UHGV virus genome: UHGV-1359728 | Source of the DNA: a virus | DNA: 14,383 nucleotides | Reading direction: 5' to 3' (one strand) | Shown: one piece after another, positions 2,304 through 8,356 of the stretch | Layout of the letters: each line of letters opens with the position of its first letter | Numbering within the stretch: the stretch's first letter is position 1 | The notes under the pieces: generated by a model | The model's database searches: none | Seen by the model: only the letters and a program-made list of their open reading frames with translations | Told to the model about the DNA's origin: nothing | Program-made: the position numbers and the translations under genes

Positions 2304-2482
2304 CTTGTATTCCTCGCACGATGTCTTAGCCACCGGATATCCCACAGGTGAGCCGTGTAGTTGAAGGTTTTTACGTCAGATTCTTTTGGGATTGGCTTGG
2401 GTTTATTTCTGGTGCGTTTCGTTGGAAGGTATTTGCAGTTTTCGCAGATTATGTCGGTGATACTTCGTCGCTGTCGTCTCAT
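2300..2482 (-). CDS. ninE: NinE-like protein
   Basis: 60-aa [26 protein letters not shown]...[16 protein letters not shown], matching recalled λ NinE. Its ATG overlaps the ninB stop. Confidence 0.8.
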
Positions 2483-2889
2483 TCGTACCTCCTGTCGGTA
2501 AATCTGACACCCTGACCAATAGCCCAGGCTGTTGTGTACTCGATCAGACTTGCCATACGCTTCACGCTCATCTGCGCGCTGCTTTCGCGAATGTTGACGT
2601 ATTCGCCTTCAAGCCCGGGTAAAACATCAGCTTCCTGTTTCGTTGCCACTGCATGACCGCTTATCAACAAAACCTTCCATTGTTCTGGTTTTAACCATTT
2701 ATCGCGCCACTGAACTTGCCTAGCGATATCTGCGACCATCGCGTGAAATTTTGCGTTCTGGTAAAGGTTGCGCTTGTAGTCAGTAATGCGGATGGTGACT
2801 GGCTTGTCTTTATCGAGAGGAGTTGCGAGGATGGCGTTGATTGCGGCTTGCTGTTGTTGCTTAGTTCGGAGGAATATTGTTTGCTTCAT
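2479..2889 (-). CDS. ninB: NinB/Orf-family recombination mediator
   Basis: ORF-track frame 2479..2937. The likely start is the internal ATG at 2889 ([21 protein letters not shown]...), which has a GGAG Shine-Dalgarno 7 nt upstream. The extra 16 N-terminal codons in the track overlap the upstream gene. Confidence 0.75.
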
Positions 2890-2891
2890 CG

Positions 2892-3080
2892 TTACTCCTT
2901 CACTTTGACTCCGGCGGTGCGAACTGCGACCATCCAAGCCCTGTATCTCTTGTTTATTTCAACTCGTTTATACACAATCACGCCCAAAATATTCTTGCTT
3001 CGCATTTGTCGAATGAAGCAAGCGGAGACACCAAGTTCATCAGCGCACCAATCTTCAAATCTCTCTAAGTTATCGTCCAT
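2892..3080 (-). CDS. Hypothetical small protein (62 aa from ATG 3080; 70 aa if GTG 3104 is used)
   Basis: ORF-track frame 2892..3104. The ATG at 3080 follows GGGGA and sits 1 nt after the upstream stop. Its stop (TAA) lies inside the ninB Shine-Dalgarno. No recognisable motifs. Confidence 0.45.
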   Translation of the reverse strand: MDDNLERFEDWCADELGVSACFIRQMRSKNILGVIVYKRVEINKRYRAWMVAVRTAGVKVKE

Positions 3081-3081
3081 A

Positions 3082-3297
3082 TCAATCCCCGTTAATCGTT
3101 TCACTCACGAATCTGACAAAACCAGCCATGTTAATTTGCATGAGTTTTTTCAACACTTTGTCTCGCCGGCTACGTTTTGGTTTTGGCCTGTGGTTGAATC
3201 TTTCACAAACTGGAAGGCTTGATGATTTCCAGTACCTATTACGCCTTGCTCCATCTTCCGCCATATCGGCATGAATAAGGTCTGCGAGTGTGCTCAT
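3082..3297 (-). CDS. Hypothetical basic small protein (71 aa)
   Basis: ORF-track frame 3082..3303. The ATG at 3297 is preceded by GGAGAGGTG. The protein (MSTLADLIHADMAEDGARRNRYWK...RPKPKRSRRDKVLKK) is lysine/arginine-rich. Confidence 0.5.
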   Translation of the reverse strand: MSTLADLIHADMAEDGARRNRYWKSSSLPVCERFNHRPKPKRSRRDKVLKKLMQINMAGFVRFVSETINGD

Positions 3298-3311
3298 ATT
3301 CACCTCTCCAG

Positions 3312-3494
3312 TTACATTGGTTTTGTAATGTTGCTAGTCATCTTACGAATAAAAAAATGCGTACGTAGCTTTGCTTCCCACATGTAAATCTCTTCAAGAC
3401 GAGATAAATCTACGAATACCGGACCTTTGTAATCTGGTCTTGATGCCCTTATGTATGAGCTAATAGTTTGTGCATCTTGCTCGTCAAGATTCAT
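3312..3494 (-). CDS. Hypothetical small protein (60 aa)
   Basis: The internal ATG at 3494 of ORF-track frame 3312..3698 gives MNLDEQDAQTISSYIRASRPDYKGPVFVDLSRLEEIYMWEAKLRTHFFIRKMTSNITKPM. It lies immediately downstream of the terminator hairpin and is preceded by GGGGGAGAGGGA. Confidence 0.45.
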   Translation of the reverse strand: MNLDEQDAQTISSYIRASRPDYKGPVFVDLSRLEEIYMWEAKLRTHFFIRKMTSNITKPM

Positions 3495-3509
3495 GACTTC
3501 CCTCTCCCC

Positions 3510-3542
3510 CAAATAAAAAGGCCTGCGATTACCAGCAGGCCT
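3510..3542 (-). terminator. Rho-independent terminator (tR2-like) downstream of the helicase gene
   Basis: On the minus strand an 8-bp perfect stem (AGGCCTGC/GCAGGCCT, plus-strand 3519-3526 and 3535-3542) with an 8-nt loop is followed by TTTTTATTT. Confidence 0.6.
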
Positions 3543-3570
3543 GTTATTAGCTCGGTGATGTAGATGGTCA

Positions 3571-5007
3571 TCAGAATCCTCCTTTCTTCTTGGATTGCGG
3601 TTCCTCGCGTTCACGGCGGCGCATTTCAGCGGACTGTTGGTCTGTGTCATAAATAGCGCCATTTGCCTGAATGCAATACACCGTGCCGGTATTGCCATGA
3701 CGATTGAGACGAAGGATTAGTTCAGTTTCACCAGGTGGAACACTGTCATCAAAAGCGCCTTCACGATGGATCCCGACCCAATAATCGCAATCCTGTTCAA
3801 TCTGCCCTGTATCTCGTGAGTCACTTGGTAATGGGCGTTTATTGGTTCGGCTTTCCAGTGCGCGGTTAAGCTGTGTCAGAAGCACAACAACGCAATCAAG
3901 CTCTTTGGCAAGGTTCTTCAGTCCTTTGGTGATCATGCCGTAAGCAAGGTCGTTGCGATCGGCCTTCTCAGCGGTCATTAGTGTCAGGTAATCGACCAGA
4001 ATCATGCCAACATATCCTTTTTCTCGCTTGATTCGACGGCTTTCGCTGACGATTTGAGCCAGAGATAATCCCGGCGTGTCGTCGATGTAAAGCATGTCGA
4101 TTTCACTCAAGCGATTGGCTGTTTCGATCGCCCTGTTGAAGTCACCATCGTAATCACCCTGATAGCCGTCATCAGCGTCATTTGTCGCCGGAAGGTAAAA
4201 AATATTCGGGTTAACACCAGACTTCTGCCCTACCAGTTTTTCCAGTATCTGGTCACCGGGCATTTCAAGGCTGAACATCAGAGCGGGCTTTTTCTCATGC
4301 ACTGCGCAGTTGATTGCCATCTGGCTGTATAGCGTCGTTTTCCCCATCTTAGGGCGAGCGCCAATGACAAACAGAGAGCCTTTCACCAGACCTTTCGGTG
4401 ACAGCATCCTGTCCAGCGATGGGATCCCTGTGCTCATTCCTCGTTGTTCGCCTGACGGGTCAAATCGCTTCTCAAGGTCGCTAACCCAGTCTTCCATGAC
4501 CTCACCAAATGAGCGAAGGCCGCGACGCGATCCGGTTTTTGCATGGTCTGTCAGTTGCGTGAAAATCGCCTGAATAGCTTCGTACTTCTGCGTTGCAGTC
4601 ATTCCGTTGCGGGAATAGAGCAATTCCGTCGCTTCAGTCATGCGGTTGATGGCGTAGCGTTCCATTGCGGTTTCACGAACCTGCATTGCATAGGCAACGA
4701 TGTTTGCTGCGCTTGGCGTGTTCTTTGCGATCTCAGCGATATAAGCAAAACCGCCAACAGACGCCGTTAACGATTTACGCTCCAGTTCATCGAAAAGCGT
4801 CAGGCCATCTACTGGCTTTTGCTCCCGGTGCATTCTGGTTATTTCTTCGAAAAGGATTTTGTGTGGCCGGCTGTAAAATGAGTCAGGCTTCAGCATCGCC
4901 AGAACTTTCTGGACGCGCTCACTGCTGTCATCATCCAGAAGCAATCCACCAATCACCGCCTGCTCTGCCTCGATGCTATGGGGCGGCGCATAAAAATTAT
5001 CGGTCAT
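3571..5007 (-). CDS. DnaB-family replicative DNA helicase (phage-encoded, P22 gene 12-like)
   Basis: About 478 aa from the ATG at 5007 (the track's GTG at 5022 is an alternative). Walker A GARPKMGKTT and a DnaB-like N-terminal domain. GAGG lies about 10 nt upstream of the ATG. Confidence 0.9.
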   Translation of the reverse strand: MTDNFYAPPHSIEAEQAVIGGLLLDDDSSERVQKVLAMLKPDSFYSRPHKILFEEITRMHREQKPVDGLTLFDELERKSLTASVGGFAYIAEIAKNTPSAANIVAYAMQVRETAMERYAINRMTEATELLYSRNGMTATQKYEAIQAIFTQLTDHAKTGSRRGLRSFGEVMEDWVSDLEKRFDPSGEQRGMSTGIPSLDRMLSPKGLVKGSLFVIGARPKMGKTTLYSQMAINCAVHEKKPALMFSLEMPGDQILEKLVGQKSGVNPNIFYLPATNDADDGYQGDYDGDFNRAIETANRLSEIDMLYIDDTPGLSLAQIVSESRRIKREKGYVGMILVDYLTLMTAEKADRNDLAYGMITKGLKNLAKELDCVVVLLTQLNRALESRTNKRPLPSDSRDTGQIEQDCDYWVGIHREGAFDDSVPPGETELILRLNRHGNTGTVYCIQANGAIYDTDQQSAEMRRREREEPQSKKKGGF

Positions 5008-5896
5008 CGTGTTCACCCTCACGAACTTTCAGGTAGGTATTATCGTTAAGCAGGAAATCAAATCCCTTTTTGTGCCAGACGGTTCCGCGTTGATGGTTTG
5101 GGCGCTCTTCGAACATCCATCGGCAATTTTCGCCAACGTAGCTCAAATAATTTCTCCAGTCCTGCATCGTGAACCCATGCCCGTCAAGCTGGCGGGTTAT
5201 CACTCCGGCTTTGCGCCAGAACGTTCGGATCTGGTTTTTACGCTTGTCATTCAGTGCGCGGATTCTTGGAGCTTCAGGAAGGATTTCGTGGTAAGCATCG
5301 ACAACATCCTGACAGCTGACGGAAGGTTTTTTCTTGTCAGACTTTTTGTCTGCTGTGGCACTCTCTAATACGTCAGTATTAGAGATAATATTATTATATT
5401 CTTTATCTGTGGTAATTTGCTGGTAATCTGCTGGTACAGCATTGCTTACAGGCATTGGTATTGCTGGCTTTGAGGTGGTAATTTGCTGGTAATCTGCTGG
5501 TACAAAATTTGACTGATAATCGTCATATTTCTCTACCGAGAAAACTGAGAATTTACCGTGTGAAACCCAGTCAATCATGCCGAGTTTTTTGAACTTTCTA
5601 AGCAGGTACTGAACGCGATCTGGTTTGAGTCCTGTTTCAAACGCCAGAGAGTTTCTACCGCCAAGTAGCTTCCCTCTGCCTACCAGAATTTCTCCTGCGT
5701 CAGTCATTACATACTCAGGCGTATGCTTTGCTTTGAGGATTAAGTGAACCCACAGATGCGCTGCTTCTGCATCCTTGTAAAACGGCACATCCATAATTTT
5801 ACGGTGCAGCAAGGCATACCCCTTACCGCTGCTTTGATGCGGTTGTTGTAGCCTTCTGGCCTCTCTGGCTTCGGCTAGATTAGATATGTTACTCAT
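4997..5896 (-). CDS. Replication initiator, λ O / P22 gp18-like; contains the origin iterons
   Basis: 299-aa ORF with AAGGAG 8 nt upstream of the ATG at 5896. A 10-aa motif [10 protein letters not shown] occurs twice in the protein, encoded by DNA direct repeats, as expected for ori-inside-O. Confidence 0.85.
5375..5510. repeat. Candidate origin of replication: iteron array plus adjacent AT-rich tract inside the O-like gene
   Basis: A 29-bp direct repeat TGGTAATTTGCTGGTAATCTGCTGGTACA occurs at 5410-5438 and 5476-5504. Within it, TGCTGGTA units lie 10 bp apart (5419/5429 and 5485/5495), with a further TGCTGGC at 5462. An AT-rich tract (AGAGATAATATTATTATATTCTTTATC, 5381-5407) lies on the gene-downstream side. 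Confidence 0.6.
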
Positions 5897-6364: not shown

Positions 6365-6375
6365 TTGTTAATTTT
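6342..6375 (+). promoter_or_regulatory. Candidate CII-dependent establishment promoter (PRE-like) with a TTGC-N6-TTGC motif
   Basis: TTGCTGTAGCTTGC at 6342-6355 (TTGC, 6 nt, TTGC) lies at the 5' end of the cII-like gene on the opposite strand. A possible -10 TAATTT sits about 17 bp downstream. It is oriented toward the repressor gene. Confidence 0.4.
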
Positions 6376-6428
6376 CCTATATTGATATTGAGTTATAGCG
6401 GCACACCCAATGGATTTGCCGCTGATGT

Positions 6429-6473
6429 TTGCTCACCCGGTTAGAGGTGAAAGGCCAGAACTGTTAAAGAGCA
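6429..6473 (-). promoter_or_regulatory. nutR site: boxA plus phage-21-type boxB
   Basis: Minus-strand boxA TGCTCTTTAACA (plus-strand 6462-6473) lies 7 nt after the cro stop. The boxB hairpin TTCACCTCTAACCGGGTGAG (plus-strand 6432-6451) matches my recollection of the phage 21 boxB. Confidence 0.6.
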
Positions 6474-6479
6474 ATTTGC

Positions 6480-7600: not shown

Positions 7601-7709
7601 CAGAACTTGAGTGGTTTTGGGGATGGCGCGAATTGCAGCTGCAAGACAGCGATCGAGAAGATAAGCACCTCGACGCGTCATGCGCCAAAGCCACTTAAAG
7701 GAGACCATC

Positions 7710-8015
7710 ATGGTAACCATTGTCTGGAAAGAATCCAAAGGTACGGCAAAAAGCCGCTACAAAGCTCGCAGAGCAGAACTTATTGCCGAGCGACGCAGTA
7801 ATGAAGCACTGGCGCGAAAAATTGCGCTAAAGCTCTCTGGTTGCGTCAGAGCAGACAAAGCAGCATCGCTAGGAAGCCTTTGCTGCAAGAAGAAAGAAGA
7901 AGTCGTTCGAAAAAATAGAAGTATTTATTACAAAGATTCAAACCCATTAGGAAACAAAATACATGCAGTCCAAAAAATAAAATTGTACAGTAAACTACCG
8001 TACGGTGCTTATTGA
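7710..8015 (+). CDS. N: N-type transcription antiterminator (phage-21-like arginine-rich motif)
   Basis: From the ATG at 7710 (AGGAG 8 nt upstream) the protein starts MVTIVWKESKGTAKSRYKARRAELIAERR..., containing the phage 21 N arginine-rich peptide as I recall it. The C-terminus has the QKIKL motif. The track's upstream extension from 7680 overlaps nutL. Confidence 0.85.
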   Translation: MVTIVWKESKGTAKSRYKARRAELIAERRSNEALARKIALKLSGCVRADKAASLGSLCCKKKEEVVRKNRSIYYKDSNPLGNKIHAVQKIKLYSKLPYGAY

Positions 8016-8017
8016 GT

Positions 8018-8356
8018 ATGCTTATGGTGAAAAAGACTATTTATGTTAATCCTGACCGCGGACAAAACAGAAAAGTATCTGATAGAGGTCTTACATCTCG
8101 AGACAGGAGGAGAATAGCGAGATGGGAAAAAAGGATAGCATATGCATTAAAAAACGGTGTAACACCTGGATTTAATGCTATAGATGATGGCCCTGAATAT
8201 AAGATTAATGAAGACCCAATGGACAAAGTTGACAAAGCATTAGCAACACCATTTCCTCGCGATGTCGAAAAAATTGAAGATGAAAAATATGAGGATGTAA
8301 TGCACAGAGTTGTTAATCACGCTCACCAACGAAATCCAAATAAAAAATGGTCATAG
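8018..8356 (+). CDS. Hypothetical protein (about 112 aa), AT-rich gene between N and the tL1-like terminator
   Basis: Uninterrupted ORF in markedly AT-rich DNA. The N-terminal half is basic (RGQNRKVSDRGLTSRDRRRIARWEKR) and the C-terminal half acidic (EDPMDKVDK...EKIEDEKYED). The start is ambiguous (TTG 8012, ATG 8018 or ATG 8024) and the Shine-Dalgarno is weak. A terminator follows immediately. Confidence 0.55.
   Translation: MLMVKKTIYVNPDRGQNRKVSDRGLTSRDRRRIARWEKRIAYALKNGVTPGFNAIDDGPEYKINEDPMDKVDKALATPFPRDVEKIEDEKYEDVMHRVVNHAHQRNPNKKWS

Follow-up and report, generated by a model that had tools for sequence, protein, structure and literature searches.

Annotation of the 14,383-nucleotide window, the whole stretch of viral DNA analyzed here (UHGV virus genome UHGV-1359728), revealed the early region of a lambdoid Escherichia coli prophage of the HK022/mEp235/Kapi1-like type; its nearest phage isolates are Kapi1, phiv205-1, mEp235, and HK022, which are 96-98% identical to the window with 40-50% of it covered. 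The genes on the minus strand follow the order cro (P22_Cro), cII, a DUF2740 gene, an O-like gene, a DnaB-type helicase gene at the position of lambda P, ninA with the terminator tR2, three small open reading frames (ORF1-3), ninB, whose product is the Orf recombination mediator, ninE, ninF, ant (a KilAC/Rha antirepressor gene), ninG, and ninH (Table 1). The original prediction had placed three minus-strand ORFs of 60, 71, and 62 aa head to tail in front of ninB, and its coordinates and spacings proved exact; that the three are real genes is borne out by family HMMs and distant homologues for ORF1 and ORF2, and by the ratios of non-synonymous to synonymous polymorphism (pN/pS). Like other nin-region accessory genes, the three ORFs belong to the pR operon: they follow tR2, in the interval that separates the replication genes from Q, and they share the orientation of their neighbors with little space between genes. 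The GC content of this cassette is 38-44% compared with about 50% in the flanks. No RNA family of Rfam was matched in the window, and no repeats were found in positions 2700-3700. A 168-aa antisense ORF on the plus strand (2716-3222) was rejected as a gene, the codon-position variation pattern fitting the minus-strand frames.

Table 1. Features at and around the junction between ninA and ninB, in positions of the window.
Feature	Position	Strand	Basis
DnaB-like replicative helicase gene	3571..5022	-	PF03796 2.3e-60, PF00772 3.4e-31
ninA micro-ORF, 26 aa, hydrophobic, MTIYITELITGLLVIAGLFIWGRGKS	3491..3571	-	identical peptide to the mEp234 'NinA protein' CDS
Intrinsic terminator (lambda tR2), inside ninA	3511..3542	-	terminator scan, fold, identity to lambda
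ORF1, 60 aa, near-neutral, ATG 3494 to TAA 3312	3312..3494	-	phrog_21123
ORF2, 71 aa, ATG 3297 to TGA 3082	3082..3297	-	DUF7301 (PF23975), phrog_1785
ORF3, 62 aa, ATG 3080 to TAA 2892	2892..3080	-	rare short allele, third-gene position
ninB, ATG at 2889	2479..2889	-	PF05772 2.3e-52

Upstream of ORF1, the hairpin AGGCCTGC-TGGTAATC-GCAGGCCT at 3542-3519 is followed by TTTTATTT, which together give an 8-bp stem with six G-C pairs, an 8-nt loop, and a T-tract. A terminator scan of both strands of 2400-3800 returned this hairpin as the sole terminator-like site. Over the hairpin and the T-tract, no base differs from the ren-ninB interval of lambda, and the element described in the original prediction as tR2-like is, on this identity, lambda tR2 itself, located inside the ninA micro-ORF. 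The helicase stop codon (TGA, 3573-3571) overlaps the ninA ATG (TGATG), and the ninA TGA in turn overlaps the ORF1 ATG (ATGA), ninA thus linking the helicase stop to the ORF1 start. The lambda ren-ninB intergenic sequence encodes the same ninA ORF, and the published geometry, in which NinA starts ~30 bp before tR2 and stops ~16 bp after it (PMC4824070), is the same in the window. Comparison of 12 ninA alleles revealed 11 synonymous versus 4 non-synonymous changes, the latter conservative, and two variants in the tR2 stem, both C-to-T with pairing kept as G-U. Because the changes are mostly synonymous and the stem pairing is kept, the NinA peptide and tR2 both look constrained. NinA variants at other loci have a different hairpin or none that is obvious, yet they are still hydrophobic. 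As a side observation, ninA (3571-3491, 26 aa) is a fourth small ORF of this locus, overlooked in the first reading of the sequence.

In lambda and in mEp234 the stop codon of ninA shares bases with the ninB ATG, and the ren gene of lambda precedes tR2. Lambda therefore has no gene at the ninA/ninB junction, and the cassette sits at that junction and not at the ren position. Thus, the proposal that the cassette lies where lambda carries ren and ninA does not hold, since ren is upstream of tR2, ninA contains tR2, and lambda ninA abuts ninB. The sequences flanking the cassette match those of lambda and mEp234 identically or nearly so, and the ORF1 ATG stands where the ninB ATG stands in these two phages. 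Orthology to Ren or NinA, which the original prediction had raised as the contrary outcome, was not found: ORF1-3 gave no blastp match to either protein at E<=10, and the PHROG families that were matched carry no Ren or NinA annotation. Identity with Ren was rejected on the missing blastp match and on position, Ren lying upstream of tR2 and the cassette downstream. Identity with NinA was rejected as well, since none of ORF1-3 resembles NinA or is a hydrophobic micro-ORF of 26-34 aa that overlaps the upstream stop and contains tR2, and NinA itself is encoded by the separate ORF described above.

Between the helicase gene and ninB, neighboring genes either share bases of their start and stop codons or leave a gap of 1-14 nt. 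ORF1 and ORF2 are separated by a 14-nt spacer that has its own Shine-Dalgarno sequence and contains GGAGAGG, and the ORF3 ATG follows the ORF2 stop after 1 nt. ORF3 ends ...AAG GAG TAA CG ATG(ninB), 2 nt ('CG') before the ninB start, and the AAGGAG of its final two codons serves as the ninB Shine-Dalgarno sequence; both the 1-nt gap and the overlap with the ninB ribosome-binding site had been predicted correctly. Tight ATGA-style packing with translational coupling is a general property of nin regions (PMC8022706). Hence, of the predicted translational coupling, the tight packing is present, but it is generic to nin regions and gives no sign of a functional cassette.

A consensus scan of 2892-3542 found no promoter-like site, and the terminator scan of 2400-3800 found no terminator after ORF3. 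An arginine-rich motif of the phage-21-type (phi21) N protein is encoded at 7680-8015. Because the cassette lies downstream of tR2, lacks an internal promoter-like site, and is accompanied by a phi21-type N motif, its expression should be delayed-early and antitermination-dependent, judging from gene order. ORF1-3 would be transcribed only within the delayed-early pR transcript, after antitermination carries RNA polymerase through tR2. For the nin genes of lambda and Sf6 in general, dependence on antitermination is known (PMC8022706; PMC5630979). The cassette resembles morons in being a low-GC accessory insertion between conserved genes, but differs from them in having no promoter-like site of its own (in the consensus scan) and no terminator after it, and in being co-oriented with the operon and packed into it; with no flanking promoter and terminator of its own, it was rejected as a moron.

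Profile searches matched ORF1 to phrog_21123 over positions 1-60 of 60 (PHROG HMM, E 5e-40) and to no Pfam family, and ORF1 homologues are present in Serratia phage Eta (41% identity) and a Klebsiella phage (55%). This conserved gene is left unannotated in RefSeq and in many records of Stx phages. ORF2 scores 108.6 bits with Pfam DUF7301 (PF23975; cut-off 27; E 1.6e-31) over model positions 1-64 of 65, and it matches phrog_1785 over its full length (1e-34). The match is full-length and far above threshold, with no difference from the family, and by its sequence ORF2 is a plain DUF7301 member. Phages of Salmonella, Klebsiella, and Cronobacter carry homologues of ORF2 with 41-64% identity, and Stx phages of the VT2-Sakai type carry a paralogue with 45% identity; most of these relatives lie in nin regions. 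A literature search found DUF7301 mentioned in no paper, DUF7301 patterns run against the GTDB representative genomes brought up no real relative, and an index-based homologue search returned only close relatives for all three proteins. In the one RefSeq genome checked, the start of the DUF7301 gene is called 11 codons short.

ORF2 is strongly basic, as the original prediction had noted for the middle protein, with a pI of 10.35, a net charge of +6.7, and 10 K/R among residues 33-51. Its AF2 model (pLDDT 82) has helices at residues 4-25, 30-35, and 44-69 arranged as a helical hairpin with a basic linker, and a Foldseek search of the PDB and BFVD gave no fold match below E=3. In the allele comparison, variation was concentrated at third codon positions, and pN/pS was 0.30 for ORF1 and 0.14 for ORF2, compared with 0.09 for ninB, so that ORF1 and ORF2 show clear purifying selection.

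ORF3 has no significant match in Pfam, PHROGs, NCBIfam, or PADLOC, so that the earlier remark that none of the three proteins is recognizable holds for ORF3, which has no family match, but not for ORF2 (DUF7301) or ORF1 (phrog_21123). An exhaustive HMMER search of 1.84 billion proteins recovered relatives of ORF3 in 15 representative clusters, and among 50,697 phage isolate records ORF3 has a single match, 35% identical, in Providencia. In some of its relatives from other genera, the ORF3 domain is fused N-terminally to DUF551. The AF2 model of ORF3 consists of three helices at a pLDDT of only 64 and has no PDB or BFVD match below E=3 (Foldseek). Helix-turn-helix-like matches of this low-confidence model (pLDDT 64) to Xis, Cro, and GntR are non-significant and local (22-29 columns, E>3), and no Pfam helix-turn-helix family was matched.

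The position that ORF3 occupies is never empty across the 49 IMG/VR loci that carry a close relative of ORF2. The typical third gene encodes 80-117 aa, starts 1 nt past the ORF2 stop, begins MD(E/D)SRK.FE.W, and usually closes with ...IRAAG(V/I)KVKE ahead of the ninB start; its family is phrog_343 (type of Sf6 gp48, mEp235_047, and HK022_59). At this position the 49 loci hold 32 distinct proteins, in which 11 N-modules and about 10 C-modules are joined in 23 combinations. The striking modularity and hypervariability of the third gene contrast with its near-identical neighbors. ORF3 shares with the phrog_343 family the locus before ninB, the first codons (MD...), the FE.W motif, and the last 9-10 codons with the ninB ribosome-binding site, and DNA comparison of 14 loci gives it the same start and end as the phrog_343-type genes, with the AGVKVKE tail containing the ninB Shine-Dalgarno sequence. 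The N-domains are homologous by profile-profile comparison, the profile of the ORF3 family aligning with the third-gene N-halves over 51 columns (hhalign probability 96.5%, E 9e-10).

ORF3 differs from the phrog_343 family in having another N-module and no C-terminal module, and in forming a rare sub-family of its own. It has no match to the phrog_343 profile at E<=1, compared with 1e-19 to 1e-30 for seven other third-gene alleles. ORF3 keeps the N-terminal FE.W...RAW.A domain and the ...AGVKVKE tail but lacks the C-module body (…G.[ND]…A.…IRAAG[IV]KVKE), its N-domain running straight into the 10-residue tail; a C-module is present in every other third-gene allele sampled, with one ambiguous exception. 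Because it shares the gene ends and aligns by profile with the N-halves, ORF3 is a rare, short, and divergent allele of the module-shuffled third gene, one that consists of the N-domain only. Homology of the C-terminal part of P0040 to third-gene C-modules was rejected (E=4.6).

The loss of a module raises the possibility that ORF3 is what remains of a longer phrog_343-type gene in decay, and that the cassette is, in part or as a whole, passenger DNA with no function. The C-module that ORF3 lacks is found in the other third-gene alleles, apart from the ambiguous one, and ORF3 has the highest pN/pS of the set (0.51, from only 7 alleles). The nin genes of lambda and Sf6 are moreover generally dispensable for lytic growth in the laboratory (PMC5630979; PMC8022706). 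However, E. coli and Citrobacter relatives with identities as low as 77% keep the short form intact and at equal length, intact versions of the domain occur in other genera, in some cases fused to DUF551, and purifying selection is clear for ORF1 and ORF2, and we regard the passenger explanation as distinctly improbable. The third gene is variable in a manner that suits an arms-race target, and module shuffling could also stem from recombination at the conserved gene ends and not from diversifying selection.

Inspection of the same 49 IMG/VR loci revealed ORF1 and ORF2 as an adjacent pair in every one of them, and of 5,426 complete E. coli genomes 95 carry either gene, each of these 95 having the pair; the ORF1-ORF2 gap measured by tblastn is 17-18 nt. 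The exact ORF3 joins the pair in only 4 of the 49 viral loci and 5 of the 95 E. coli genomes. Relatives of ORF3 with 78-90% identity occupy the same helicase-ninB slot but follow unrelated genes, and mEp235 and HK022 carry relatives of the third gene without the ORF1-ORF2 pair. Distant homologues of DUF7301 and of ORF1 are found without each other. The suggestion that the three genes travel as a unit is thus contradicted by these counts, ORF1 and ORF2 being constant and ORF3 not. As judged from sequence comparison, the cassette falls evolutionarily into a conserved ORF1-DUF7301 pair and a variable third position. Paralogy of ORF1-3 with one another was tested with blastp and rejected.

These distributions also bear on the possibility that the three products form one functional unit, either as a three-protein complex or as a cassette for toxin-antitoxin-like activity or superinfection exclusion. 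Tight start and stop spacing would suit such a unit, as would the constant association of ORF1 with ORF2 among close relatives and the presence of a gene of the ORF3 superfamily after ORF2 in every case. Conversely, the same tight packing is shared by all nin genes, the exact ORF3 accompanies the pair in the few loci and genomes counted above, its relatives follow unrelated genes in other prophages, third-gene relatives do without the pair in mEp235 and HK022, and the distant homologues of DUF7301 and ORF1 occur singly. The cassette also has no promoter-like site of its own, and ORF1-3 have no PADLOC match at E<=1 and match no Pfam or NCBIfam toxin-antitoxin family. A single functional unit is therefore very improbable.

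The surroundings of the pair are similarly diverse. Upstream of it are at least five different gene ends, including those of helicases only about 39% identical to the one here and of an HNH endonuclease gene in Stx phages, and downstream are two types of ninB, in agreement with the description of this part of the lambdoid early-right operon as exchange-prone. Some loci carry a 67-aa gene upstream of ORF1, which was rejected as Lar-like because the resemblance is limited to a Cys pattern, with no Pfam match and a blastp E of 1.9. Lambdoid phages shuffle a nin pool of 30-50 genes. With lambda the locus shares its operon position, the tR2 hairpin and T-tract within ninA, the neighbors ninB, ninE, ninF, ninG, and ninH, ATGA-style packing, antitermination dependence (read here from gene order), and mosaic exchange; the differences are that ninA and ninB adjoin in lambda and that lambda ren precedes tR2. 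Comparative evidence thus identifies ORF1-3 as non-core accessory genes of the lambdoid nin pool, inserted between ninA/tR2 and ninB. A known DUF, a small PHROG family, and a rare short allele of a variable gene make the cassette ordinary delayed-early mosaic cargo of the nin region.

Location between the replication genes and ninB/ninG raises the question of whether the products are accessory factors of replication or recombination that act with the DnaB-type helicase or with NinB/Orf, ORF2 for example binding DNA or SSB-coated single-stranded DNA to modulate helicase loading or strand annealing. The highly basic character of ORF2 and its helical-hairpin model are compatible with this role, and in Klebsiella phage RCIP0034 a DUF7301 homologue lies directly before a NinB-like gene. 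However, the pair occurs with helicases of ~39% identity, with other upstream genes, and with ninB types of 32-38% identity, and so tracks no particular partner; lambda and mEp234 do without any of ORF1-3, and none of the three proteins is similar to a known DNA-binding or replication family. We consider such an accessory role unlikely.

Function assignment from databases was uninformative: Pfam, PHROGs, NCBIfam, and PADLOC returned only families without function for the three proteins, and PDB profile searches with all three found nothing. The nin region was outside the coverage of the accessory-gene screen of Silas et al. The helical models of ORF2 and ORF3 and the lack of matches to enzymatic families favor proteins of a binding type. 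All three products would be small, probably soluble, helical proteins without catalytic motifs, whose most likely action would be stoichiometric binding to another macromolecule during lytic growth, and the basic linker of ORF2 would contact nucleic acid or an acidic protein.

The best guess for the role of these proteins is host takeover or counter-defense, as for other cargo of the neighborhood. Ren acts against Rex exclusion, and the Lar family is associated with restriction alleviation. In Stx phages a Lar-family gene is located between the third gene and ninB (TIGR03655 7.6e-17; PF14354 2.3e-9), and one third-gene allele is a fusion to a Lar-like domain. The Lar-family gene in the same slot of Stx phages, the fusion, and Ren next door together favor counter-defense. 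Lar-family genes and lambda ren are small early genes in or beside the same slot, but they have no sequence similarity to ORF1-3, and the likeness is one of location and possible role. The assignment to host takeover or counter-defense is accordingly a guess by analogy, of low confidence, drawn only from neighborhood association and variability. Taken as a whole, the reading of ORF1-3 as nin accessory genes that are expressed delayed-early and encode small binding proteins with a host-takeover or counter-defense role is on balance probable. A more specific version, which we regard as quite unlikely, is that of a counter-defense locus in which the conserved pair would provide a common activity and the reassorting N- and C-modules of the third protein would set specificity for fast-evolving targets in the host or in rival phages, ORF3 being an N-domain-only allele.

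As it stands, the cassette adds three uncharacterized entries to the known nin gene pool and matters little. Its value lies in part in annotation, ORF1 being conserved but unannotated and the DUF7301 start being miscalled in the RefSeq genome checked, and the ninA/ninB junction emerges as a well-defined hotspot with fixed ATG-to-ATG boundaries. O157 Stx-converting phages carry the ORF1/DUF7301 pair, so that any function found for the pair would apply to medically relevant prophages. Lastly, if the counter-defense role is true, the locus would be a compact and easily screened source of small inhibitors.

At the sequence level, the gene immediately preceding ninB, of which ORF3 of the cassette is a short N-domain-only allele, is strikingly modular. 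Comparison of 49 loci in which the adjacent ORF2 (Pfam DUF7301) is 94-100% identical revealed that the N- and C-modules of this third gene reassort independently, with 32 proteins representing 23 combinations, and that ~10 codons at either end, as well as a central SRAAIEI junction, are conserved. The gene begins 1 nt past the ORF2 stop in the IMG/VR loci (L009-L055), and HK022_59 and mEp235_047 are of the same type. In more distant phages, a DUF551 domain and the ORF3-type domain are adjacent, overlapping in another reading frame, or fused (locus L008, 3989-4397; proteins P0041, P0045 and P0046), and these arrangements are likewise placed between the helicase gene and ninB.

In Stx phages, as in Stx2a_F349 (L001, AP012530, 2393-4395), the 5' half of ninA is replaced by an HNH endonuclease gene, the end of which directly abuts the tR2 hairpin; ORF1 (phrog_21123) and ORF2 are followed there by the third gene, beyond which lie a second DUF7301 gene, paralogous at 45% identity, and a restriction-alleviation gene of the Lar family. 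Separately, in a record of Salmonella phage PSP2-22 (L109, ON886116, flagged UNVERIFIED_ORG), genes for a T7-like DNA ligase and RNA polymerase adjoin lambdoid early genes encoding a DUF4752 protein, DUF7301 (64% identity) and a phrog_343-type protein; either a chimeric assembly or unusual recombination could account for this.

Although ORF1 is conserved, no annotation for it is given by PGAP/RefSeq or in the majority of GenBank records for Stx phages (H108-H116). DUF7301 is called from Met12, as a protein of 60 aa, in the one RefSeq genome examined (E. coli MB15, L106, NZ_CP073984, 6030-6337), although a start at the upstream ATG, giving 71 aa, is favoured by both the Pfam model and the distant homologues. 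The GC content is 38-44% across the cassette (window 2900-3500), whereas the helicase gene has 48-54% and ninB 46-50%. An antisense ORF opposite the cassette (see table) is probably spurious, since the pattern of variation fits the minus-strand frames.

Features of the window other than the three cassette genes
Feature	Position	Strand	Remarks
Antisense ORF, 168 aa	2716-3222	+	Opposite ninB, ORF3 and ORF2
ninA micro-ORF, 26 aa	3491-3571	-	Hydrophobic; lambda tR2 inside
cro-cII gap	6365-6479	-	boxA-like GCTCTTTAACA, then hairpin CACCTCTAACCGGGTG
ORF with phage-21 N arginine-rich motif	7680-8015	+	Exact motif GTAKSRYKARRAELIAER
Nun-like protein	8012-8356	+	99% identical to HK022 Nun

The NinA peptide and the tR2 terminator that its gene contains both look to be under selection, because changes among 12 ninA alleles are mostly synonymous (11 versus 4 non-synonymous), G-U pairing in the tR2 stem is retained in both variants, and NinA variants of 32-34 aa at other loci are associated with a different hairpin or none that is obvious.

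The HK022 sequence upstream of nun corresponds to DNA of the motif-bearing ORF from ~7898 onward, and by sequence this ORF looks like a chimeric N gene adjoining nun. An N-type antiterminator beside a Nun exclusion protein looks to be an unusual combination. HK022 homology in the cro-cII area begins only at cII, and the HK022 putR region is therefore absent from the gap. The gap holds the hairpin CACCTCTAACCGGGTG, which we take to be the phage-21 boxB, and the element constitutes a candidate nutR, by means of which polymerase would pass tR2 into the cassette.
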